DNA of 64,000 nucleotides. Source: a virus. Made by a program: the position numbers and the translations under genes. Positions 40,347 through 50,839 of this stretch are shown in pieces. Every line of letters starts with the position of its first letter. Within the stretch, counting starts at the first letter, position 1. The DNA is taken from positions 32,001 to 96,000 of IMG/VR virus record IMGVR_UViG_3300046008_000291; one strand, written 5' to 3'. Below the pieces are notes generated by a model. That model did no database searches. It was not told where the DNA came from and saw only the letters and a program-made list of their open reading frames with translations.

Positions 40347-40418
40347 TTACATGTGGCCTTCTGCAAATATGTTTACAAATACTGTATCATCTTCTAGTGC
40401 TTCAATTTCGTGCCATTC
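40347..40418 (-). pseudogene. 3' remnant of a probable cupin-fold gene
   Basis: Manual translation EWHEIEALEDDTVFVNIFAEGHM* with no start codon; matches cupin motif 2 (..wH....leD.v...). Confidence 0.5.
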
Positions 40419-40422
40419 CTTA

Positions 40423-40818
40423 TTATACTGCGGCAAGTTTTGCCTCTTCAGTTATTTTCTTTTCAGCAATTACAGTAGGATAGTCTAGTTCACCAGCAAT
40501 AATTTGTGCCTTTAATGCTTCTAATACTAGGCGTGCTTTATTTTGCTCTACTCTTTCAGAACGCAACAATGAACGCAATTTATCACGGTATTGGTATTGA
40601 GCTATTGTCTGAACATCTTCATCACTCATATCCCAGGGTAAATTTTGCGTGTCTGTATTAATATGTTGTGCTAGATTATCAGGAATAGCGTCGGTTGGTA
40701 AACCAGTAAGCATCACAGTATAGTTGTCTACATTTATTTGGTATTGATAGACTTCCTTTTCTCTGTGGTATGCGTTTGTTACTAAAGTATCTAAATGTTC
40801 ATCTTGTGTTACTATCAT
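40423..40818 (-). CDS. Hypothetical protein following the beta-propeller adhesin (possible assembly chaperone)
   Basis: 131-aa ORF with RBS AGGAG; a paralogous fragment lies at 42876..43019. Confidence 0.75.
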   Translation of the reverse strand: MIVTQDEHLDTLVTNAYHREKEVYQYQINVDNYTVMLTGLPTDAIPDNLAQHINTDTQNLPWDMSDEDVQTIAQYQYRDKLRSLLRSERVEQNKARLVLEALKAQIIAGELDYPTVIAEKKITEEAKLAAV

Positions 40819-40839
40819 GGTTATTTCTCCTATTAAAAT

Positions 40840-42027
40840 TTAAATGTAGTTAACAGCTAGTCGGGAGCTATTAGTAGGTGCATTTGCTGGGTCGGCATAT
40901 TTAGCTCCGAATCCATTGGACCAAACGTATGCCTGCATAATACCGCCAGTGCCTTGGTATTGATACGCACAAAGCACTATTACGGTTTCTGAAATATTAA
41001 ATCCGACGGAGCTAACTTGGTCCATCCCGTAATTGAGGTTTATTGGCGTCACTGGGTCGGCATATTTACTGCCAAATCCGTTGGACCAAGCGTATACAGT
41101 TACAAAAGGGAAGTGATTGTGACCAACAGCTATAGCATTTCCTGAAGGGCTAAATGTAGCGTTCCATGCACTGCCTTGGGGTGACCATAATGGGTTTGAG
41201 CCTATTGGCGTCGCTGGGGCGGCATATTTACTGCCGAATCCATTGGACCACGCCCATACATGTATATATGGTGCTATGTTAGCTACGGGAACGGCCAGAG
41301 CAGTCCCTTGCGGATTAAAGGTAATTGCTGATAGGTTATTGCCTGATCCTAGCTGAGTTGGACTGGTATATTTACTGCCAAATCCACTAGAAAAAGACCA
41401 TGCTTCGACGTAACTCCGCTGGACCATTGCTAGCACAGTTCCTTGCGGATTAAAGCACACACCTTGCCCACGGGCACCAAGTGGCAGCGATGCCGGATCG
41501 GCATATTTAATTCCAACTCCAGTAGTATTAGACCAAGAGTATGCAGATATCCTTATACCTGTAGTGGAAGCAACAGCTATTGCATCATCCGAAGGAGTAA
41601 AGGCTATAGTAGTAACAATAGTCGGTGGTGGTGTTGCTGGGTCGGCATATTTACTTCCAAATCCGCTGGACCAAGAGTATGCAACTATTCCCGGAGTTCC
41701 AGATTGTACGACTGCTATTGCTGTGCTCGAATGAGTAAACTTTAACGATCCCGGAGAAGATAATGCTGCCGACGGGTCGGCATATTTAGCGCCGAATCCA
41801 TTGGACCACGGCCATGCATATACATACGGTGCCAAAGCCGACGACATAGCTATCACTGTTCGTAAGTTACTTTTACCAAATCCGTTGCTCAAAGTAATAC
41901 GGCCGCTGGCTATTTCAAATAAGGTTCGCACAGCACTATCACTTAATTTGCGACTAGTGTTAGCTGCAACACCAAGTTCTACGTTGATGTCACTGAATTT
42001 AATTACACCACTGGATGGTAACGGCAT
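40840..42027 (-). CDS. Putative adhesin: MPLPSSG adaptor plus 7-bladed beta-propeller
   Basis: Seven WS(N/S)GFG(A/S)KYADP-like repeats; the first ~54 aa match 44498..45454. Confidence 0.75.
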   Translation of the reverse strand: MPLPSSGVIKFSDINVELGVAANTSRKLSDSAVRTLFEIASGRITLSNGFGKSNLRTVIAMSSALAPYVYAWPWSNGFGAKYADPSAALSSPGSLKFTHSSTAIAVVQSGTPGIVAYSWSSGFGSKYADPATPPPTIVTTIAFTPSDDAIAVASTTGIRISAYSWSNTTGVGIKYADPASLPLGARGQGVCFNPQGTVLAMVQRSYVEAWSFSSGFGSKYTSPTQLGSGNNLSAITFNPQGTALAVPVANIAPYIHVWAWSNGFGSKYAAPATPIGSNPLWSPQGSAWNATFSPSGNAIAVGHNHFPFVTVYAWSNGFGSKYADPVTPINLNYGMDQVSSVGFNISETVIVLCAYQYQGTGGIMQAYVWSNGFGAKYADPANAPTNSSRLAVNYI

Positions 42028-42779
42028 TACGGGGTTCCAAAGCCTGCTATGTCGCCAGTGACAGTTACGGTACCTGAGGTGTTCAGGCTCATTTTAACTG
42101 CGCCATTGTAGGCAAAATATAAACTAGTACCAGTTTCGTAAATCTGCCAACCCGTGAATTTAACGTTGGCACTGGTTGTAACATTGCCAGTGAATGTGGC
42201 TCCACTTAAATCAGCCTTACTTGCAATTTGTCCAGACTGTGTTGCAGCATTGCTAGTTAGAGTAGCAATACTACCAGCTTGTACTCCAGCATTGGCTGTC
42301 CATGCAGTAGTAACTGCGTCAACATAACCTTTCATGTTGGTGTTGGCTGTGGTTATCGATGAACTAGTAGTTGATATTTGTCCATCAACATAACCTTTCA
42401 TGTTGGTATTGGCCGTAACTATTGCAGCATTAGCACCCGTAATTGAACTACTTACTGTAGTGATTTCATTTGATTGTATAGTATTGGCTGCATCAACATA
42501 ACCTTTCATGTTGGTGTTGGCTGTAACTATTGCTGCATTCGCTCCAGCAACTGAATTACTAACGGTTGTAACTGCTGATCCTAGCGCATAACTGGCGGCT
42601 GCTGTTCCGCCAAGGAAGCTGGCATTATTTGCTAGACTAGCAGTTCCTGTAAAATTAGTTGCAGTTACATTACCTGATGTGATATTACCAGTGACCGATA
42701 GGTTACTTAGAGTACCTACTTGGGTAACATTACTTTGTATATTATGTAGTACGTCCGGTGTTACCTGTGTTAATGCCAT
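42027..42779 (-). CDS. Mini tail-fibre protein (250 aa)
   Basis: Shares the ANAAIVTANTxMKGYVD coiled-coil repeats with the 1642-aa fibre; ends VTVTGDIAGFGTP. Confidence 0.75.
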   Translation of the reverse strand: MALTQVTPDVLHNIQSNVTQVGTLSNLSVTGNITSGNVTATNFTGTASLANNASFLGGTAAASYALGSAVTTVSNSVAGANAAIVTANTNMKGYVDAANTIQSNEITTVSSSITGANAAIVTANTNMKGYVDGQISTTSSSITTANTNMKGYVDAVTTAWTANAGVQAGSIATLTSNAATQSGQIASKADLSGATFTGNVTTSANVKFTGWQIYETGTSLYFAYNGAVKMSLNTSGTVTVTGDIAGFGTP

Positions 42780-42805
42780 AGTTATTCTCTGTTATATTGT
42801 ATTTA
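42734..42805. repeat. 72-bp direct repeat, copy 2
   Basis: Matches 40216..40287 with 2 mismatches. Confidence 0.95.
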
Positions 42806-42875
42806 ACTAAAAGTTTTACATTACACCCGTTTAATATCAACTATAATATAGGAACACTTAAAGACAGTCTTTTAC

Positions 42876-43019
42876 CTAACTATTTGCAGCTACTTTAGCG
42901 TCTTCTACAATCTTCTTTTCAGCAATTGCGGTTGTGTAATCTAATCCACCAGCAATGATTTGTGCTTTTAATGCCTCTAATACAAGTCTAACTTTATTTT
43001 GTTCTACTCTTTCGGAACG
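42876..43019 (-). pseudogene. 3' remnant of a paralog of the 131-aa gene at 40423..40818
   Basis: RSERVEQNKVRLVLEALKAQIIAGGLDYTTAIAEKKIVEDAKVAANS* versus RSERVEQNKARLVLEALKAQIIAGELDYPTVIAEKKITEEAKLAAV*; no 5' part. Confidence 0.9.
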
Positions 43020-43038
43020 CGGGCAATGTCTTATCTTA

Positions 43039-43896
43039 TTATGTAGCAATTATATTATCATATTTCAATGGTATTCCATTTGCTTTATAAAACCCCAATG
43101 TTTCTGTGGAGCCTTCCCCATTAAGAAAGGCCGCACCTTTTAATTGATTAATCGGTGCAAAGCCAGCATTGACTGCCAACCTTACGCCTGTGAATTCCTC
43201 ATCTTTAATAAATTCAAAATGACGCGGAGTTCCAGCAAAAATACTTGGCTTATATGTGTTTATATAATGGCATAAATTTAATTTTGATGGACTAGCATCC
43301 AATAAAATTGCGGTTATATCATTTTTTAATGCAACACAAATTGATAATGCAAAACCGTATGCGTGTGTTATTTTTTCCGCACAAAATAAACTTCTATCAT
43401 TTGTATCCAAAAGCAAATCCCCCATATATTCGCCCACATTTAACAATGTTTTTGGCGTATGCGAAATGAATTTTGGGGCGCCTGTTCTGCCTGATGTATG
43501 AAAAACAATACATTCTAAATCTTGCTCAAAATCTAATTGAGTTTCAATTGGCTTGAAATTTGAATAATCTATTTCATTTGCAATGATTAAAGAATTTTCA
43601 AATTTTTTTTTGGCTTGATTTAAAGTATTAAAATTATGCTCAACGCCACATTTCCCCGAACCTACTAAAACTGGGATGGCACCAATCCACATTGAACCAA
43701 ATATAGCAATTGGTAAAAAAGCCGTATCAGGCAGTTTTATAATAATAAAATTGCCCTTTTGGATATTTAAAAATTTTAAATAATTAGCAAATTTTTTAAT
43801 TGATAAAAAAATTTCATCACTTGAATGTGCCCCATTTTTATCAATAAAACATGGGTTGTTTTTATTGGTTAAAAAAAATTGTGAAATGAAATTCAT
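43039..43896 (-). CDS. AMP-binding (ANL superfamily) adenylating enzyme, short or C-terminally truncated
   Basis: IVFHTSGRTGAPK (A3 motif), HAYG, GSTETLG; 285 aa; very AT-rich. Confidence 0.75.
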   Translation of the reverse strand: MNFISQFFLTNKNNPCFIDKNGAHSSDEIFLSIKKFANYLKFLNIQKGNFIIIKLPDTAFLPIAIFGSMWIGAIPVLVGSGKCGVEHNFNTLNQAKKKFENSLIIANEIDYSNFKPIETQLDFEQDLECIVFHTSGRTGAPKFISHTPKTLLNVGEYMGDLLLDTNDRSLFCAEKITHAYGFALSICVALKNDITAILLDASPSKLNLCHYINTYKPSIFAGTPRHFEFIKDEEFTGVRLAVNAGFAPINQLKGAAFLNGEGSTETLGFYKANGIPLKYDNIIAT

Positions 43897-44501
43897 TGTA
43901 TCAATTTTACATTTGATGAAATTTGATTTTTATTTATAAAACAAGCAAAAATTGATGGCTTAAATATATTTTCATTAACTATGTTATTGATAATTTCAAT
44001 TGCTTCAATTTTTGAATTGGCTTGAATATGGGTGCCAGTCCATAAATTAAACACTTGAAAAATTCCATCATTTTCATACGTTTCTATTGAATCAACACCG
44101 CACCATTCAACATCATTATTTTCATGATATTTTACCAAAGCGACTGAAGTCATTTTTTTGTATTTTTCAAATATAGATTCATAAATGATTTTTTGATTTT
44201 TTTTTGCTTCATTTAAAGTATTAAATTTTTGTTCAATTTCCAATACTTGGTTGTAAATAAAATAATGACTTACAGCATAACTTTCATTCCAATAATCCCA
44301 AGCATTGGTTGAATTAAATAAACTTTCCCACCATTTCAACGCTTCTTGGTCCTCTGTTTCTAAAGCTATATTGAAAACCTCATTATCTGTTTTCCCAGTC
44401 AACGGCTCATTTAATGAATTTTTACCATTAAAAAAATCCAAACCTTCTTGGCAAATTTCAACATCAGCTAATTTAATTAGATCTAAATTTACAGTTCTCA
44501 T
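43893..44501 (-). CDS. Hypothetical protein, AT-rich
   Basis: 202 aa; ATGA-type overlaps with both neighbours. Confidence 0.7.
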   Translation of the reverse strand: MRTVNLDLIKLADVEICQEGLDFFNGKNSLNEPLTGKTDNEVFNIALETEDQEALKWWESLFNSTNAWDYWNESYAVSHYFIYNQVLEIEQKFNTLNEAKKNQKIIYESIFEKYKKMTSVALVKYHENNDVEWCGVDSIETYENDGIFQVFNLWTGTHIQANSKIEAIEIINNIVNENIFKPSIFACFINKNQISSNVKLIQ

Positions 44502-45454
44502 GATACAGCCCCATAAACACGAGTTGTATTACCGCTTGTCCAAGTAACAGTGTATCCATTAAGCGCGACTGCTTTGCCACCTGCTCCACCAGCATATCCA
44601 CTCGCCGCTGCACCCCCTGCCGCCCCCCAGCCGCCACCACCGCCGCCGCTAACGGCTGCGCTGCTTATGCCCCCACCGGCATTTGCGCTACCGCCAGCAC
44701 CACCACCAGCAGTGCCACCAGCACCACCTGAGCCGGCAAATATACGGCCACCGCCACCGCCGGGATACCCTGTGGTAGATTTGCCTGAACCAGCTTGCCC
44801 ACCACCGCCACCGCCGGCGCCGCCACCTTTACCGCCTGAGGCGCCACCTGTTCCATTTGTACCGGCAGAGCCGACGCCGCCACCTACTCCGCCACCACTT
44901 TGCTGGCCAGCGTTACCGCCGCCAGCACCGCCACCACCTTGGAAAAAGCCCCCGCCACCACCGCCGCCGCCAATATAAGCAGAAGCATTCGTATTATTTA
45001 TTGTCACGATTGAACCAAGGCTTATGGCATTTCCACCGGCTAAACCTGTATATGGTGCTGTTGACGTGCCACCAGCACCACCCATTCCAGCAATAAATCC
45101 ATTGTTAATGATAGTTAAGCCGCCAGGAAAACTTCCGGTGGTTAATGCAGGAGTTCCCGTAGAAGTGGAATAAATCCAAACTCCCGAACCGATAGTGATT
45201 GTTGCGGCAGTAGAACCATCCCATCCATTCGCTAAAGCCCAAGTTCTTAAATTCAAATTGGTTTGATTTGATGAAATGGTTGCCAAGAACGCATTTGACT
45301 TACCATAGCCAACATTCATTGCTATAGCACCACTGCTTACTCCAAATAGTGTTCGTACCGCACTATCATTTAATGATATCTGTGCGGTGGCGGTTAAGCC
45401 AAGTTCTACGTTGATGTTGTTAAAGGATATCGCACCACTGGATGGTAAAGGCAT
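44498..45454 (-). CDS. Gp38-like glycine-rich adhesin with MPLPSSG adaptor
   Basis: LTIINNGFIAGMGGAGG, polyglycine tracts, C-terminal GGKAVALNGYTVTW...RVYGAVS resembling T-even gp38; directly follows a fibre with an S74 chaperone. Confidence 0.75.
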   Translation of the reverse strand: MPLPSSGAISFNNINVELGLTATAQISLNDSAVRTLFGVSSGAIAMNVGYGKSNAFLATISSNQTNLNLRTWALANGWDGSTAATITIGSGVWIYSTSTGTPALTTGSFPGGLTIINNGFIAGMGGAGGTSTAPYTGLAGGNAISLGSIVTINNTNASAYIGGGGGGGGFFQGGGGAGGGNAGQQSGGGVGGGVGSAGTNGTGGASGGKGGGAGGGGGGQAGSGKSTTGYPGGGGGRIFAGSGGAGGTAGGGAGGSANAGGGISSAAVSGGGGGGWGAAGGAAASGYAGGAGGKAVALNGYTVTWTSGNTTRVYGAVS

Positions 45455-45455
45455 G

Positions 45456-48400
45456 TTACTTGTCCTTTATTTGTTGCTCTAGCAAGTGGACCTGTTGTTG
45501 TAGTTCTTTAATAGCCGCAAACGCTAGGGCACACATCTTTTCATAGTCAACAGCCAAGTAGCCATCTTCTCTAGTGCGCACTGCTTCGGGTAACACCTGC
45601 TCAACGTCTTGTGCTATAACACCAAAGTCAGCTTTACGCATAAAGTAGTCATCTAAGCCACCGTGATCGGCAATGTATTCATCAGTCCAATCGAATAGTT
45701 TACCACCAATAGCTGTAACTTTAGCTAGTGCGTCGGGTATGTCACGCACATTTTCTTTTAAGCGTGAGTCCGAACTGTAGTAAGCTGTGATGTTGTTAGT
45801 GGCACGTATTTCACCACTAGTTCCACTTGCGGCTGTACCTACACCAAGACTTGAAACTTGAGTGCTTGAGTTTGGCACTGCGCTGATATAACCATTTGGA
45901 TTGGTACTGTTGTACGGAGTGTAACCAAGTGCAGTAGTAACTTGACCTGACGTTATACCAGTTAAGTAGCCACTTGGGTTTGTGCTGTTATAAGGAGTAA
46001 ATCCTAGTGCAGTAGTAACTTGACTAGAAGTAATTGCACCAACTAAATTTGTAGCACTTACGTTGCCGGCTGTAATATTTCCGTAGAAGGTAGCAGTAGA
46101 GCCGACATGTGTATTTGCATAGAGTATGCTCCACCAAGCTGATGTGCTACCTAAGTTTACGCTTACGTTAGCATTAGGTACCGGAGCACCACTTACTGTT
46201 AAACCAGTTAATGTACCAACACTAGTAACATTGGTCTGGGCCGCAGTTGTTAATGTTCCGGTTAAGTTAGTAGCACTTAGGTTATCTGCACCGACATTAC
46301 CTGTAAATGTTCCGCCAATTGATGTTAGGTTGCCAATTCGTAAGTTACTATAAGTAGCGTTAGTAAAGTCAATTGTTGTAGTAGGTTCTGCTGCTACATT
46401 AGCAAATAGTTTCCAAACGCCGTCTGTGGCATCACGCACAAAGCCAGTGTGTTGATATCCAGGATTAGTAAACGAACTTACGATACCGATATCTAATACA
46501 TCACCGGAGTTGTCATCGGCTAGATATATCAGCGAGTCAGCAATACTTAGATTGTTGGCATTAAATATTGTTTCAGTTCCAGCAACTTGTAAGTTACCGC
46601 TGATGTAAACATTTCCACTAAAACTTGCACCACCACTGACTACTAGTGCGCCGGTTCCTTCTCCGGTACTTTGTGTTGTATCAGTAACACGCAGATTACC
46701 ACTGGTCGATACGTTGCCTGTGAATGCTGCTCCTGCCAGTGCAGCTTTTTCTGTGTCTAATTCTGCCAGGGCATCTTGAACTGTAGTTGAACTAATTGTT
46801 CCAACCGGACTACTGTAGGTTGCATTAGCATAGACATTATAATCTGTATATGCGTCAACTTCTGCTAATACTACAGTTCCGCTAGTAACTCCTGTAGATA
46901 GTGTAACTGCTGAACTATTTGTTTCAGTATAGGCACTGTCAAACTGTCTAACACCATTGATGTATATGCGTAACTGTCCTGCACCCGGAGTGTATGTGAT
47001 TCCAGTGTATACAGTTTGTCCTGAAGTAGCAGTAAAATAAGTTCTACTGGTGCTGATAGTTGTACCAACTACGCTGCCTCCACCTGTTTCTGCACTCCAA
47101 TAGTAACTGCCTTCACCTGCAGTTTTTAATACGTAGCCACTGACTTCACCACTGGGTAATAGATTGTTTAATGCAGAACTAGTACTTGTTCCACCTGTAC
47201 CACCAGATGATATAGCCAGTGCAGATGTTAACGATATATTTGGTGCGGCCAAGGCGCCAGTAAATGTTGCACCCGATAATTGTGCATAGTTGTTTTGTAT
47301 AGTTGCTAATGTGCCTGCTTGTGCTCCAGCATTGGCCGTTAGAGTTGAATTTATTGCATCAACATACCCTTTCATAGCTGTGTTAGCAGTTACAATTGCA
47401 GTATTAGCACCGGTTACACTATTACTAATGGCTGTAATTTCATTTGATTGTATAGTATTGGCTGCATCAACATAATCTTTCATTGCTGTGTTGGCTGTAA
47501 CTATTGCAGCATTAGCACCGGTGACTGAATTAGTAACAGTGGTAATCTGCTCATCAACATAGCCTTTCATTGCTGTGTTGGCTGTGGTTAATGAACTTAT
47601 GTTTCCTGTATAAGATGGTAAGTATGCCGCTACATTTGTGTCAGTATACCCTGCTGGCAAGCCGGTTAGTTGACTGCCATCACCTATGATGTAGTCTGCA
47701 CTAACATTTCCTGTGATCGTTAACCCATCACTGCCAAATTTACCTACATTGCCGCCGGCAATAGAAACATTTACAAAGTCATCAGTTGCTTTGACCTGCG
47801 TGGTATTTGCAATAAGTATAGTCGGATCAACATCTGATGTTAGATTAATCGGAGTAGGGCTACCCGCAGGAGTAAAACTCAATGCATTGTCGACTACTTT
47901 AAGCAGTGCACCACCAATATGAATAGTACTGCCACTCATGTACAGGTCGCGCCACCACATTGAATCAGAACCCAGATCATATGTGACATTTGCTGTTGGT
48001 ATTAAATTACCGGTAATATTGACATTACCAGTAGATAATTCTACTTTAGACGTAGGTCCGTAGGTCAGTGATCCTATAGAAACTGCGCCAGCAACAATAT
48101 GTCGAATTTCAATAATATCAGTATCTTGCGGAGTTTCTGTGAATGTTATTACATTACCAGACATATTATATGATGTAAATGGTTGTTGCATTGTACCGTT
48201 GATACTAACTAGCAACCCGTCTGGAGTAGCCGAGGTTGTTAAATTATAGCTTGCAGTTAGTCCATCAGGGTAGACAGTTTCTGATGTAATTGTAGCTGCG
48301 CCCGGGTATGTCCATTCTGCGCCAGTCCAGTATTCCACAGCATCATTGTCAGTGTTAAAACGTATGTACCCTATCTCAGGATTTAGAGGACGAGTAATTA

Positions 48401-50384
48401 CATTTCCAACAGGAATGCCCAGTGCATCGGATCCAACAATTTGTACAATGCCTGTATTCTGTGCATCGATGTATATATTTCCACTTGATGAAATTGTGTT
48501 ATCAACTATTGATATGTTACCAATATTAACAGTATTGTAAAATGTTGATGCATTAGCTGTTATATTTGCAATTAATTCTGAATCAAGGGTAATTTCTAAT
48601 CTACTATTATTAGTTTCATCTATTAGATTTACTAGACTATCACCAATGACTAGGCTATTTGCAGCACCACTTAATGTTGTTGTTAGATAGTTTAATGTAA
48701 CTACATCCTGTGCGCTAACTGGATCAGCAACGTCAGATATAACACTACTATTAGCAAAAATATAACCATTAGTTGGTGCTATTGTTAAGTTAGCCACTGT
48801 TGATATAGTTGTATCAGTAAAGGTTACATTACCGACTTGAGTAAGAGTAATGTTAGCAATATTTGTAATGCGGCCTTTGCTGTCTACAGTAATTTTAGGA
48901 ATTCTATCCCATGTTTCATCATCTGCAGCACCATATGTGCCTGCAGTAACACCAGTGTCTGCTAAAGTTAATGCAATATTTGAAACATTACCACTGCCAG
49001 TAGCATCACCAGTAACTGTAATTGTAGTTTCTTGAGTTACAACACGAATATTACTTTCATAGATCTCATCAGCATTGATAATACCGGCTGTTGTAGTTCC
49101 TGTGATACCTAAATTTCCACTAATAGAAATGCTATCAACTGAGATGTTGCTTAAATTTGTTATGTTAGGCTGATTGCCTGTAAGTAATGTGCCAGTGATT
49201 GTGTTGGCTGTTATGGTGTTAGCAGTAATGTCTGTTCCGTTAACATTACCAGTAATACTAATATTTCCACCAATGGAAATGCTATCAACTGTAATATTTC
49301 CTAAATTAGAAATATAAGGTTGATTAGTTGTAAGTATCGTGCCATTTAAATTAGTTGCATTAATTGTATTAGCGTATACTGCACTCCACCATGTATCGGC
49401 ATAACCAATATTACCAGCAATGTTACTTGTTGGTACAATAGAGCTTTGCGCAATGATATTTCCACTGACTGTTAATGCTGATAATGTGCCCAATGATGTA
49501 ACATTAGTTTGGCTGGCCGTCAATAGTGTGCCAGTTAGATATGTACCACTAACATTGCCTGCGCCAACATTACCTGTTACGTCTAGTGATATTAATGTAC
49601 CTAAAGATGTAACATTAGGTTGTGCATTAGTCGCTAGTGTGCCGGTTAATACTGTACTTCCACTTGCACCGATGCTAGTAACACCGGATAATGTTGTGAT
49701 GTTTGGTTGAGCACTTGTTAGCAATGTACCTGTTAAGTATGTACCACTGACATTGCCTGCACCAACATTACCTGTTACATCGAGAGCAGTTAATATACCT
49801 GTTGATGTTATGTATGGTTGTGCTTGAGTTAGTAATGTACCAGTTAAATATGTACCACTAACATTGCCTGCACCAACATTACCTGTTACATCGAGAGCAG
49901 TTAATATACCCAGTGATGTTATATTTGGCTGTGCTGATGCAGTTACCGTAGTTGCCGATCCAATTACATTGCCGGTGATATTACTTATTATATTGCCTGC
50001 ATCAATATTACCAGTGACTGATAGGTTGCCTAACGTACCTACTGTGGTTATATTAGTTTGTATAGCTGTGGTTAACGTACCAGTGATATTTGTACTGGTA
50101 ATATTGCTAGTATAAAGGTTTCCGCTATAGATATTGCGCCAATATTTATTAGTCGCACCAATATCGTATGTTAAATTAGCTGAGGTTAATATATTGCCGG
50201 TTGTTACAAGAATGTTCCCAGTAACTTCTAATGATTCTTGGGGAGATGCCGTGTTGATACCAAGACGAAAGTTAGTAAAATCTAACTGTAATAATGTGTC
50301 ACTGTTGGTAGTGAAGCCTAGATCAAGACCTTGTCTATCTAGATTTCCTAACAGTGCTGCCCCGGGTACACGACCTATTGCCAT
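45456..50384 (-). CDS. Long tail fibre (1642 aa) with C-terminal intramolecular chaperone (peptidase S74)
   Basis: ITAYYSS-DSRLKENV...FGVIAQDVEQVLPEAV...VDYEKM...AIKELQQQV coiled-coil end. Confidence 0.88.
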   Translation of the reverse strand: MAIGRVPGAALLGNLDRQGLDLGFTTNSDTLLQLDFTNFRLGINTASPQESLEVTGNILVTTGNILTSANLTYDIGATNKYWRNIYSGNLYTSNITSTNITGTLTTAIQTNITTVGTLGNLSVTGNIDAGNIISNITGNVIGSATTVTASAQPNITSLGILTALDVTGNVGAGNVSGTYLTGTLLTQAQPYITSTGILTALDVTGNVGAGNVSGTYLTGTLLTSAQPNITTLSGVTSIGASGSTVLTGTLATNAQPNVTSLGTLISLDVTGNVGAGNVSGTYLTGTLLTASQTNVTSLGTLSALTVSGNIIAQSSIVPTSNIAGNIGYADTWWSAVYANTINATNLNGTILTTNQPYISNLGNITVDSISIGGNISITGNVNGTDITANTITANTITGTLLTGNQPNITNLSNISVDSISISGNLGITGTTTAGIINADEIYESNIRVVTQETTITVTGDATGSGNVSNIALTLADTGVTAGTYGAADDETWDRIPKITVDSKGRITNIANITLTQVGNVTFTDTTISTVANLTIAPTNGYIFANSSVISDVADPVSAQDVVTLNYLTTTLSGAANSLVIGDSLVNLIDETNNSRLEITLDSELIANITANASTFYNTVNIGNISIVDNTISSSGNIYIDAQNTGIVQIVGSDALGIPVGNVITRPLNPEIGYIRFNTDNDAVEYWTGAEWTYPGAATITSETVYPDGLTASYNLTTSATPDGLLVSINGTMQQPFTSYNMSGNVITFTETPQDTDIIEIRHIVAGAVSIGSLTYGPTSKVELSTGNVNITGNLIPTANVTYDLGSDSMWWRDLYMSGSTIHIGGALLKVVDNALSFTPAGSPTPINLTSDVDPTILIANTTQVKATDDFVNVSIAGGNVGKFGSDGLTITGNVSADYIIGDGSQLTGLPAGYTDTNVAAYLPSYTGNISSLTTANTAMKGYVDEQITTVTNSVTGANAAIVTANTAMKDYVDAANTIQSNEITAISNSVTGANTAIVTANTAMKGYVDAINSTLTANAGAQAGTLATIQNNYAQLSGATFTGALAAPNISLTSALAISSGGTGGTSTSSALNNLLPSGEVSGYVLKTAGEGSYYWSAETGGGSVVGTTISTSRTYFTATSGQTVYTGITYTPGAGQLRIYINGVRQFDSAYTETNSSAVTLSTGVTSGTVVLAEVDAYTDYNVYANATYSSPVGTISSTTVQDALAELDTEKAALAGAAFTGNVSTSGNLRVTDTTQSTGEGTGALVVSGGASFSGNVYISGNLQVAGTETIFNANNLSIADSLIYLADDNSGDVLDIGIVSSFTNPGYQHTGFVRDATDGVWKLFANVAAEPTTTIDFTNATYSNLRIGNLTSIGGTFTGNVGADNLSATNLTGTLTTAAQTNVTSVGTLTGLTVSGAPVPNANVSVNLGSTSAWWSILYANTHVGSTATFYGNITAGNVSATNLVGAITSSQVTTALGFTPYNSTNPSGYLTGITSGQVTTALGYTPYNSTNPNGYISAVPNSSTQVSSLGVGTAASGTSGEIRATNNITAYYSSDSRLKENVRDIPDALAKVTAIGGKLFDWTDEYIADHGGLDDYFMRKADFGVIAQDVEQVLPEAVRTREDGYLAVDYEKMCALAFAAIKELQQQVHLLEQQIKDK
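49552..49910. repeat. Intragenic repeats encoding GNVGAGNVSGTYLTGTLLT (three copies)
   Basis: 50-bp exact repeat at 49750..49799 and 49861..49910 (111-bp period); third copy at 49552. Confidence 0.85.
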
Positions 50385-50422: not shown

Positions 50423-50839
50423 CTATACTGTAGTGCTTGCAATATTGTGTAGTACTAATATAACTGCGCCACCAGTAGGCACACTTGTAAAATGTATATT
50501 TGTTGTTCCATTGAATGTGTAGTTAATGCCAGGATTTTGATATACAGTATTTAAAAATACCAATACCTGTGCCTCTTGTCCAGAATTATACGTTTTAGAC
50601 ATAGTAAAATCAGAAACTATATTATCACCAGCTAGGGTGTCTTTAGTAATAGTAACATCGCCTTCTTTAGCTACTGCGTTCCATACACTACTATTATAGA
50701 ATTCTAATTTGCCTGTTGAAGTATTATAACGAGTTTGCCCTACAACTGGCACATCTGGCCCAATTGAACTTGATCCAACTGGCACACCTAATGCATAGCT
50801 ACCTGTTTTAAATACTGTATTTTTAAGTAAGCGTCCCAT
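50423..50839 (-). CDS. Virion structural protein (fibre/baseplate-associated)
   Basis: LGVPVG...GQTRYNTSTGKLEFY..W module shared with both giant fibres. Confidence 0.65.
   Translation of the reverse strand: MGRLLKNTVFKTGSYALGVPVGSSSIGPDVPVVGQTRYNTSTGKLEFYNSSVWNAVAKEGDVTITKDTLAGDNIVSDFTMSKTYNSGQEAQVLVFLNTVYQNPGINYTFNGTTNIHFTSVPTGGAVILVLHNIASTTV

Follow-up and report, generated by a model that had tools for sequence, protein, structure and literature searches.

Two proteins of an uncultured T4-like phage share an N-terminal plug, encoded behind fibre genes, and carry unrelated putative receptor-binding bodies

Fibre and plug genes at the locus

The window, the whole stretch of 64,000 nucleotides that we analysed, comes from a T4-like phage that is uncultured and known from lake metagenomes only. 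Within it, two genes encode proteins of 318 and 395 amino acids that begin with a common module, here called the plug (Table 1). We confirmed the claim of an earlier note on this DNA that each of the two genes directly follows a fibre gene: the 318-aa gene starts 1 nt past the stop of the gene for a 1642-aa fibre, and the start of the 395-aa gene overlaps the stop of the gene for a 250-aa mini-fibre. The ORF coordinates and starts given in that note are correct, and its strand had to be changed to minus, as plus-strand translation of both plug-gene regions meets many stops and the minus-strand ORFs start exactly as quoted there. A 142-aa proline-rich ORF on the plus strand (44550..44978) was rejected as a gene; it is the antisense reading of glycine codons.

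Table 1. Features of the locus, with positions in the window
Feature	Position	Strand	Evidence
Long tail fibre, 1642 aa	45456..50384	-	Pfam PF13884, PHROG tail-fibre families
Peptidase_S74 intramolecular chaperone of the 1642-aa fibre	about 45459-45773	-	Pfam PF13884
318-aa protein, whole ORF	44498..45454	-	
Plug of the 318-aa protein, residues 1-54	45293..45454	-	HMM E=2.8e-35
gp38-type adhesin body of the 318-aa protein (beta-helix and polyglycine (PGII) sandwich)	44498..45292	-	structure and profile matches
Two intervening genes (202 aa, unknown function; 285-aa AMP-binding enzyme fragment)	43039..44501	-	
Upstream copy of the 136-nt direct repeat	42885..43020		repeat search, BLASTP
Mini-fibre, 250 aa	42027..42779	-	BLASTP paralogue of the long fibre
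395-aa protein, whole ORF	40840..42027	-	
Plug of the 395-aa protein, residues 1-54	41866..42027	-	HMM E=1.7e-23
Seven-bladed beta-propeller body of the 395-aa protein	40840..41865	-	AF2, Foldseek, repeats
131-aa gene, unknown function, closing the cassette	40423..40818	-	

The long fibre has the two marks of Peptidase_S74 fibres such as endosialidase K1F, T5 pb1 and S16 gp37, a C-terminal PF13884 domain and an S-D-x-R-x-K junction. The domain lies at residues 1538-1603 (E=1.2e-13; 51.5 bits, where the cut-off is 22), and a second search scored it at 57.6 bits as the sole S74 match in the 177.7-kb record. The cleavage region reads ...NNITAYYS/SDSRLK, with the slash at the would-be cut. Cleavage by the S74 chaperone would expose the distal fibre end here, as is established for this family. 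The mini-fibre is a paralogue of long-fibre residues 947-1043 (BLASTP, 57% identity, E=2e-32), lacks a chaperone domain and ends in ...GDIAGFGTP, at the long fibre's would-be cleavage point. Some plug-partner fibres form a second class, unlike the Peptidase_S74 fibres: they lack a chaperone, and their natural end (...TAYGTP, stop) falls at the equivalent position.

The 202-aa and 285-aa genes between the two fibre-plug pairs stand outside the adhesin system. The 285-aa protein matches Pfam PF00501 (E=3.3e-18), its matches to NCBIfam acyl-CoA ligase families all fall far under the cut-off, and the intervening stretch is low in GC (0.349). The 136-nt direct repeat (family D5) has two copies that are 79% identical; the downstream copy, at 40429-40564, lies inside the 131-aa gene, and the upstream copy sits in a 57-aa remnant ORF that resembles the 3' end of that gene (BLASTP, 77% over 52 aa). 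Metatranscriptome (RNA library) contigs contain both plug genes; being contigs only, they are no proof of transcription. These contigs also contain many joints within the glycine-rich region, which may be assembly noise.

A common plug before two different bodies

The plugs of the two proteins are identical at 33 of 54 residues (61%) over residues 1-54, against 7/54 in an ungapped comparison of residues 55-108. BLASTP between the whole proteins found a sole significant match, at residues 1-77 (37/77 identical, E=4e-18). The likeness ends after GKSN, as the earlier note had claimed, and this sharp junction is itself conserved as G-[YF]-G-K-[SA]-N. Plug DNA is only 65% identical between the two genes, with different codons at 16 of the 33 identical residues, which marks an old divergence under constraint rather than a recent copy. 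The opening 56 nt of the genes are 80% identical (repeat family D8), which could be taken to mean that the common N terminus is merely left over from a duplicated gene, or is a translation-start region that both genes share, with no docking role. We regard this as scarcely credible: the codons differ at half of the conserved residues, the plug boundary is sharp and conserved, and the plug is kept in thousands of clusters from both myoviruses and podoviruses.

The plug of the 318-aa protein contains a pseudo-repeat three times over, near residues 5-13, 22-30 and 40-48. Self-comparison gave offsets of 17, 18 and 35; none of 500 column shuffles attained the highest score, that of offset 35. AF2 monomer models have only moderate confidence in the plug (pLDDT 50-74 across both proteins) and place short helices at residues 11-17 and 31-36 in the 318-aa protein (pLDDT 50-71) and at 11-17, 30-36 and 46-49 in the 395-aa protein. 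In the 395-aa protein a short helix follows every repeat core, in the 318-aa protein only the first two, an arrangement that we liken to the three helices by which S16 gp38 docks.

The body of the 318-aa protein, 35% of which is glycine, is homologous to S16 and PP01 gp38 by both structure and profile, in line with the gp38-like polyglycine adhesin described in the earlier note. Its model aligns with S16 gp38 (PDB 6F45_D) at VIA Z 22.5 (rmsd 3.5, 214 residues aligned) and with 9V85_A at VIA Z 21.0. Foldseek returned gp38 structures (E=3e-7 and 2.4e-5, probability 1.00) and nothing else at E<=0.001. Matches were also obtained to S16 gp38 by hhalign (E=1.5e-5) and to 6F45_D by phmmer (E=0.004). 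By structure and profile, the body therefore has the central beta-helix with polyglycine-II sandwich that defines gp38 adhesins, the same arrangement as in T2/T6/S16/PP01 gp38 (PF05268; 6F45 chain D, 9V85). A live hmmscan against Pfam found no family for the 318-aa protein at E<=10, whereas a precomputed protein-collection table lists PF05268 for it and most of its relatives; the strong glycine bias may explain this disagreement.

The gene order also matches. In S16, the gp38 gene directly follows a distal fibre with an S74-type chaperone, and the SDRRIKK chaperone junction of gp37 lies directly before gene 38. Gene 38 is expected directly after a processed distal long-fibre gene, and the 318-aa gene has this place (1-nt gap, S74 domain present), with cleavage itself inferred. 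Further, gp38 of the T2/S16 type has a conserved N terminus that tracks the fibre-tip subtype and a variable head, as the plug proteins do. That gp38 type is also defined by its presence in virions, at one copy per fibre, and by its control of host range, properties that extend to the 318-aa protein by analogy only.

In sequence, the resemblance to gp38 does not extend to the plug. S16 and PP01 gp38 cap the gp37 trimer as monomers (PMC6851490; PMC3157838), and S16 gp38 docks via three helices 120 degrees apart, in a three-helix bundle whose three tryptophans are conserved (PMC6851490). The plug instead has three ISxN-type pseudo-repeats, and neither protein has a tryptophan in residues 1-54, so it does not qualify as that attachment domain, the only one defined by experiment. 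Comparison of the plug profile with S16 gp38 residues 1-85 by hhalign found no similarity (probability 0.1%). The earlier note's analogy to a gp38 tip adhesin therefore holds for the body and fails for the plug as a T2/S16 attachment domain, although the structural alignment, which covers only model residue 31 onward, leaves room for a distant likeness in fold. We found no report of the gp38 attachment domain being shared with non-gp38 folds, whereas the plug is common to many such folds. Cyanophage Pam3 gp24 (PDB 7YPX) likewise has a gp38-related receptor-binding domain rich in glycine, but in that phage the domain belongs to the trimeric fibre (PMC9608196).

The body of the 395-aa protein is a beta-propeller (WD40-like or lactonase-like) of seven four-stranded blades round an axis, as the earlier note had described. 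Three lines of evidence agree: the AF2 model (pLDDT 86.6), Foldseek hits among 7-bladed propellers with E about 1e-15 and a query TM of at most 0.65, and a G[FV]GxKY motif that recurs seven times at intervals of 45-55 residues. Pfam propeller families matched only far under their cut-offs. In other phage proteins, the same propeller type is also fused to fibre-like and fn3 N termini.

Distribution of the plug and its link to fibre tips

A profile search with the adaptor of about 54 residues found 7,179 cluster representatives, with many unrelated bodies attached, and the plug occupied residues 1-54 in 150/150 of the matches listed. It is unnamed in searches of Pfam, NCBIfam and the ESM Atlas, and PHROGs matches were to unknown-function families only. 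An atlas of Klebsiella receptor-binding proteins mentions gp38-like adhesins and not the plug; the "gp38" of a PhiXacm4-11 preprint is a gene number only and was set aside. Among 326 proteins examined, the heads form about 100 body clusters, which include gp38-like, Sortilin/BNR, FG-GAP, SBBP, BNR_2, LamG/ConA, fn3, DUF7483 and unknown bodies. The phages include myoviruses and podoviruses, and several encode two or three plug proteins. One protein joins an FG-GAP head to a plug 89% identical to a plug of this phage; no related loci for it were found in viral contigs. The same plug starts thousands of phage proteins and so probably serves as a general connector by which receptor-binding heads are swapped. 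The modular adaptor with exchangeable heads put forward in the earlier note is supported in all the parts that sequence analysis can address, with fibre-tip binding and presence in virions remaining inferences.

Conserved N-terminal anchors with swappable receptor-binding domains, and several heads per virion, are familiar from tailspikes and branched fibres (K1-5, CBA120, G7C and Klebsiella phage depolymerases). Anchors of the K1-5/CBA120/G7C type form trimers that attach to adapters or the baseplate; the plug follows the same swap logic with no sequence relation to them. Because it is a 54-residue module with three pseudo-repeats, we infer that it caps a trimer as a monomer.

We defined a TAY-type end as a mature fibre end of the form [IV][TS]A[YF], at a natural stop or at the S74 chaperone cleavage site. 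Forty of 72 non-redundant plug genes lie within 20 bp downstream of a fibre with such an end (25 with a chaperone, 15 with a natural end), a further 13 lie within 4 kb of one, and 19 have none within 4 kb. The same order, plug gene after TAY-type fibre, occurs in the cultured Vibrio phage PhiImVa-1, Providencia phage PSTNGR1, Pseudomonas phage Cygsa01 and Rhizobium phage Pasto, whose plug proteins include ORF94 of PhiImVa-1, QPB11246 of PSTNGR1 and gp053 of Pasto; in AD45-P1 the plug gene comes straight after a tail-fibre gene, whose end was not read. The plug genes of nt-1 and PA5oct lie among non-structural genes, unlinked to fibre genes. TAY-ended chaperone fibres without a directly downstream plug gene are present in the same loci, and TAY is part of the S74 junction consensus, so the motif may reflect cleavage and not docking.

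Sequence comparison of related loci indicates that the fibre tip and plug co-diverge while heads diverge faster; tip, plug and head identities are, for example, 94/91/37% and 84/91/50%. This matches the lock-and-key pattern of T-even gp37 and gp38 (PMC3157838). A sister contig (L005) has flanks identical to this phage, but one block is exchanged: in place of the last ~76 mini-fibre residues, the plug-propeller gene and the 131-aa gene, it has another C-terminal domain for the mini-fibre and a 636-aa repeat protein that lacks a plug. The junction is sharp and the plug persists with the fibre tip, so recombination replaces heads or whole tip-plus-head blocks.

These data bear on whether the plug might be a virion-docking tag for a site other than the C-terminal tip, such as the baseplate, the fibre side or another fibre protein, with adjacency to fibre genes reflecting co-regulation in host-recognition modules. 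The unlinked nt-1 and PA5oct genes, the 19 plug genes without a nearby TAY fibre and the TAY-ended fibres with no adjoining plug gene would all fit such a site. We nevertheless judge it unlikely, since coupling to the fibre stop codon is tight in 40/72 cases across unrelated phage morphotypes, plug identity follows fibre-tip identity, the sister contig exchanges its fibre tip together with the plug gene, and the gp38-type body is known at fibre tips (PMC6851490).

Proposed docking of the plug on the fibre tip

Tailed-phage host range is set at the fibre tip, and to our knowledge T-even gp38 is the sole well-understood separate tip adhesin. We consider it probable that the plug docks on the tip of a trimeric fibre and carries an exchangeable receptor-binding head there. 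Docking and virion presence are inferred from synteny, co-divergence and analogy, with no complex predicted or measured; the moderate model confidence in the plug and its lack of sequence homology to the gp38 attachment domain weigh against this view. One copy of the plug protein would cap the distal end of the trimer, each of the three pseudo-repeats contacting one of the three fibre chains, and the part beyond the plug would be the receptor-binding head. Docking would take place at the mature fibre C terminus, ...[IV][TS]A[YF] plus 0-5 residues, created in the 1642-aa fibre by self-cleavage of its S74 chaperone and in the mini-fibre by the natural protein end. If the long fibre bears the gp38-type head and the mini-fibre the 7-bladed propeller, a virion would display two different adhesins, although the pairing of plugs with fibres is unestablished.

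A protein encoded straight after a fibre gene is often a chaperone (PMC9608196; PMC10579305), and the plug proteins could serve as chaperones of fibre assembly or as temporary caps, without staying on as adhesins, as with T4 gp38, Mu/Pam3 Tfa and the Alteromonas A5/V22 caps. The mini-fibre has no chaperone domain of its own and so may need folding help, while the long fibre already carries its S74 domain. Tfa-type chaperones have a variable fibre-binding N terminus and a conserved C terminus, and Pam3 gp25, a downstream Tfa-like chaperone, is absent from virions (PMC9608196). Plug proteins show the opposite pattern, with the N terminus conserved, and do not fit the Tfa arrangement of a conserved C-terminal helical trimerisation domain with variable N terminus. 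No Tfa, Mu or Pam3 gp25 chaperone family was matched in Pfam, PHROGs or NCBIfam. The bodies are lectin-like, propeller or gp38-adhesin folds, the last a virion adhesin (PMC6851490). We hold a chaperone role to be improbable, somewhat more so than docking away from the tip. The A5/V22 "chaperone caps" were set aside as chaperone-domain-like proteins of another module (PMC10579305).

If the plug is a tip connector as it appears, it generalises the gp38 principle of a separate tip adhesin. It would then mark thousands of unannotated metagenome proteins as receptor binders by a small recognisable sequence, show which fibre each head belongs to, and account for the arrival at one position of folds as unrelated as the polyglycine sandwich, lectin-like domains and several kinds of propeller. 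We give only an even chance to the broadest form of the proposal, that the plug is a previously undescribed, very widespread monomer-trimer connector in myoviruses and podoviruses, whose three repeats grip three ...TAY chain ends, self-cleaved or natural, so that any monomeric fold is pluggable and heads or tip-plus-head blocks are exchanged in nature. The sharp junction is a natural joint at which the exchange of heads could be studied with phage-host pairs in the laboratory, and chaperone self-cleavage as the source of the docking end is a testable assembly-order model. The record of the PA5oct plug protein is flagged ESI-MS/MS, and the study of that phage reported 93 virion-associated proteins.

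Two minus-strand genes for proposed adhesins with a common N terminus

The earlier note had placed two adhesin genes, here called A and B, directly behind fibre genes. Its coordinates were right, and the coding strand is the minus strand: plus-strand translations are full of stops, and minus-strand ORFs at the same positions reproduce the quoted protein starts. Each gene does follow a fibre gene, A starting 1 nt after the stop of the long fibre gene and B overlapping the stop of the mini-fibre gene. The enclosing IMG/VR virus record is 177.7 kb long, with exactly two copies of the plug (residues 1-54, common to A and B) and a single fibre with a Peptidase_S74 (S74) chaperone. Among the myovirus structural genes of the window are those for a T4-type major head protein and a tail sheath, and many lake-water metagenomes hold near-identical DNA. 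Contigs from the RNA library of one lake sample match B and parts of A exactly, which does not prove transcription.

Features of the adhesin region, in window coordinates unless marked
Feature	Position	Strand	Remark
131-aa gene	40423..40818	-	absent from sister contig L005
136-nt repeat, first copy	40429-40564		3' end of 131-aa gene
B	40840..42027	-	395 aa, plug and propeller
Mini-fibre	42027..42779	-	250 aa
136-nt repeat, second copy	42885-43020		just upstream of mini-fibre gene
285-aa and 202-aa genes	43039-44501	-	between the two fibre-adhesin cassettes
A	44498..45454	-	318 aa, plug and gp38-type body
142-aa proline-rich ORF	44550-44978	+	antisense of A's glycine codons
Glycine-rich region	44650-44950		many contig joints
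Long fibre	45456..50384	-	1642 aa, C-terminal S74 chaperone
138-aa protein	50423-50839	-	just upstream of long fibre
Exchanged region	about 40423-42260; L005:8679-11440		flanks identical

Aligned by BLASTP, A and B match significantly only over residues 1-77 (37/77 identical, E=4e-18). The similarity ends after the shared N terminus, as first noticed: residues 1-54 are identical at 33/54 positions and the following 54 residues at 7/54. This likeness is old and kept by selection, because the plug DNA is only 65% identical and codons differ at 16 of the 33 conserved residues.

The unrelated bodies proposed for the two proteins are supported by structure prediction. The model of A, folded from a 61-sequence alignment, has a pLDDT of 80, with most of the body above 85. 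The only structures matched by Foldseek at E<=0.001 were the gp38 adhesins of PP01 (9V85) and S16 (6F45_D), and VIA-align scored the S16 protein at Z 22.5 (214 residues, rmsd 3.5) and the PP01 protein at Z 21.0, with the next match at Z 5.8. With a profile of the A family, S16 gp38 aligned across its beta-helix and its first glycine motifs (E=1.5e-5, 37% identity), and phmmer matched A to gp38 at E=0.004. The head of A is a new member of the known gp38 family. The 142-aa ORF opposite it is almost certainly not a gene, being an antisense reading of adhesin glycine codons. B is a predicted 7-bladed propeller (pLDDT 86.6) with seven G[FV]GxKY repeats. Its propeller type is common among uncultured phage proteins, where fibre-like shafts, fn3 domains, or short N-terminal peptides precede it in place of the plug, as would suit a terminal binding head.

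The plug as a protein family

The plug matched no entry in Pfam or NCBIfam and only unknown-function families in PHROGs, and literature searches found no description of it. A search with residues 1-56 returned 345 proteins in one length band. At E<=0.001, a profile built from 49 plugs matched 7,179 cluster representatives, and at E<=1e-10 it matched 4,175; 150/150 listed matches start at residue 1. Conservation is high as far as G-[YF]-G-K-[SA]-N, followed by abrupt divergence. The modularity envisaged in the earlier note holds up at sequence level: the plug is a portable N-terminal module, and the bodies of 326 plug proteins form about 100 sequence clusters. Gp38-like, glycine-rich bodies are the majority; propeller signatures (Sortilin/BNR, FG-GAP, SBBP, or BNR_2), a LamG/ConA-like lectin domain, fn3, or DUF7483 mark others, and many belong to no known family. 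Several loci have two or three plug genes. Members from cultured phages (HMM E 1e-14 to 1e-22) occur in Autographiviridae (Rhizobium phage Pasto, Providencia phage PSTNGR1), N4-like phages (Vibrio phage PhiImVa-1, Alteromonas phage AD45-P1), Pseudomonas phage Cygsa01, KVP40-like Vibrio phages such as nt-1, and the jumbo phage PA5oct. A family this broad excludes the possibility that the shared N terminus is a meaningless remnant of duplication.

Comparing the plug profile with itself gave best ungapped matches at offsets 35, 17, and 18 (scores 25.0, 20.0, and 15.1). Column shuffles scored 13.6 +/- 2.9 and reached 25 in 0/500. The plug therefore consists of three pseudo-repeats sharing a core of the type [AS]-[ST]-G-A-I-S-[LM]-[SN]-D (about residues 5-13, 22-30, and 40-48). 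AF2 predicts short helices behind the first two cores of A (11-17, 31-36) and behind each of the three cores of B (11-17, 30-36, 46-49). Its confidence here is only moderate, as one would expect of a part that might fold only with a partner. In S16, a gp38 monomer attaches to the gp37 trimer by three helices, whose apical tryptophans enter three symmetry-equivalent pockets (PMC6851490). Unlike those tryptophan-tipped helices, the plugs of A and B contain no tryptophan, and the plug profile has no similarity to the S16 gp38 attachment domain. We infer that the plug solves the same geometric problem in another way. A conserved anchor joined to a variable head is a known principle; what the plug itself adds is a distinct three-repeat sequence family found across phage morphotypes and on many unrelated folds.

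Plug genes and fibre tips

Partner fibres of plug genes fall into two classes. The first has a C-terminal S74 chaperone and, before its S-D-x-R-x-K junction, G-[ND]-[IV]-T-A-[YF] plus 0-4 residues (NNITAYYS/SDSRLK in the long fibre). The second, without a chaperone, has its stop at the corresponding position (...ITAYGTP, ...NVTAYGTV, and ...NISAYT in Pasto); the mini-fibre, ending in ...GDIAGFGTP, belongs here. S16 gp37, ahead of gene 38, has the same chaperone junction but a different sequence preceding it. A fibre end of the [IV][TS]A[YF] type (TAY) lies within 20 bp of 40/72 non-redundant plug genes and farther away but within 4 kb of another 13, mostly behind one small ORF. The remaining 19 have no such fibre, 4 of them with too little upstream sequence to tell. 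As a caveat, TAY also lies within the consensus of this S74 chaperone subfamily. Six loci share the order long S74 fibre, short TAY-ended mini-fibre, single plug gene, with no plug gene directly after the long fibre itself.

Fibre-tip and plug identity go together, and heads fall behind (tip/plug/head in example pairs of related loci: 94/91/37%, 83/85/41%, 84/91/50%, and 98/98/74%). T-even gp37 C termini and gp38 N termini diverge together in the same way, a pattern read as lock and key (PMC3157838). We infer that the plug physically caps the C-terminal end of the fibre, with one plug per three chains, and that S74 cleavage would create the docking site. A's partner would be the long fibre and B's the mini-fibre, and both proteins would presumably be in virions and bind receptors.

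The main alternative is that the plug docks at a site other than the tip. It is supported by TAY-ended chaperone fibres in the same loci that no plug gene directly follows, and by the plug genes of nt-1 (ORF127) and PA5oct (EST35_0269), which are distant from fibre genes and have small or non-structural genes as neighbours. The only hint that a plug protein is in virions is an ESI-MS/MS flag on the record of EST35_0269; the PA5oct study counted 93 virion-associated proteins, and its protein table was not checked. Gene position would also agree with plug proteins being chaperones or transient caps, but their adhesin-type bodies and reversed conservation pattern do not fit this, and the long fibre has its own chaperone domain.

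Block exchange around the mini-fibre

In the sister contig L005, the plug is identical to that of A, the intervening genes are near-identical, and the start of the 2334-aa neighbour gene is 100% identical. Its mini-fibre closely matches ours for about 170 residues, then continues into a different ~110-residue C-terminal domain. The next gene encodes an Asp-box-like repeat protein of 636 aa (DUF6242) that has no plug. As L005 thus differs in mini-fibre C terminus, plug-head gene, and 131-aa gene, the exchanged block is larger than the head gene alone, comprising fibre tip, plug-head gene, and one small gene.

The 136-nt direct repeat flanks the mini-fibre and propeller cassette on both sides; its copies are 79% identical and start 2,456 bp apart. 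The upstream copy lies inside a 57-aa remnant ORF that matches the 131-aa gene at its 3' end. Contigs of two lake metagenomes break away at 42905, inside this repeat. Over window 40400-45500, summed contig depth in sequencing runs X15 and X18 was 3-8 times higher on the cassette than over 42965-45187, which suggests that the cassette also occurs in other, more abundant genotypes; depth in run X12 was even. The contig joints in the glycine-rich region may be real length variants or assembly noise.

Between the two cassettes lie a 285-aa AMP-binding (acyl-CoA ligase-like) enzyme fragment and a 202-aa protein of unknown function, in a stretch of low GC (0.349). Both are kept in L005, and are odd content for a tail-fibre cluster. 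The mini-fibre copies long-fibre residues 947-1043 at 57% identity, TANTxMKGYVD repeats included, and its N terminus resembles the VGTLxNLSVTGN repeats of the long fibre. The 138-aa protein shares a ~120-residue domain, at about 30% identity, with long-fibre residues 651-765 and with residues 1989-2117 of the 2334-aa structural protein.
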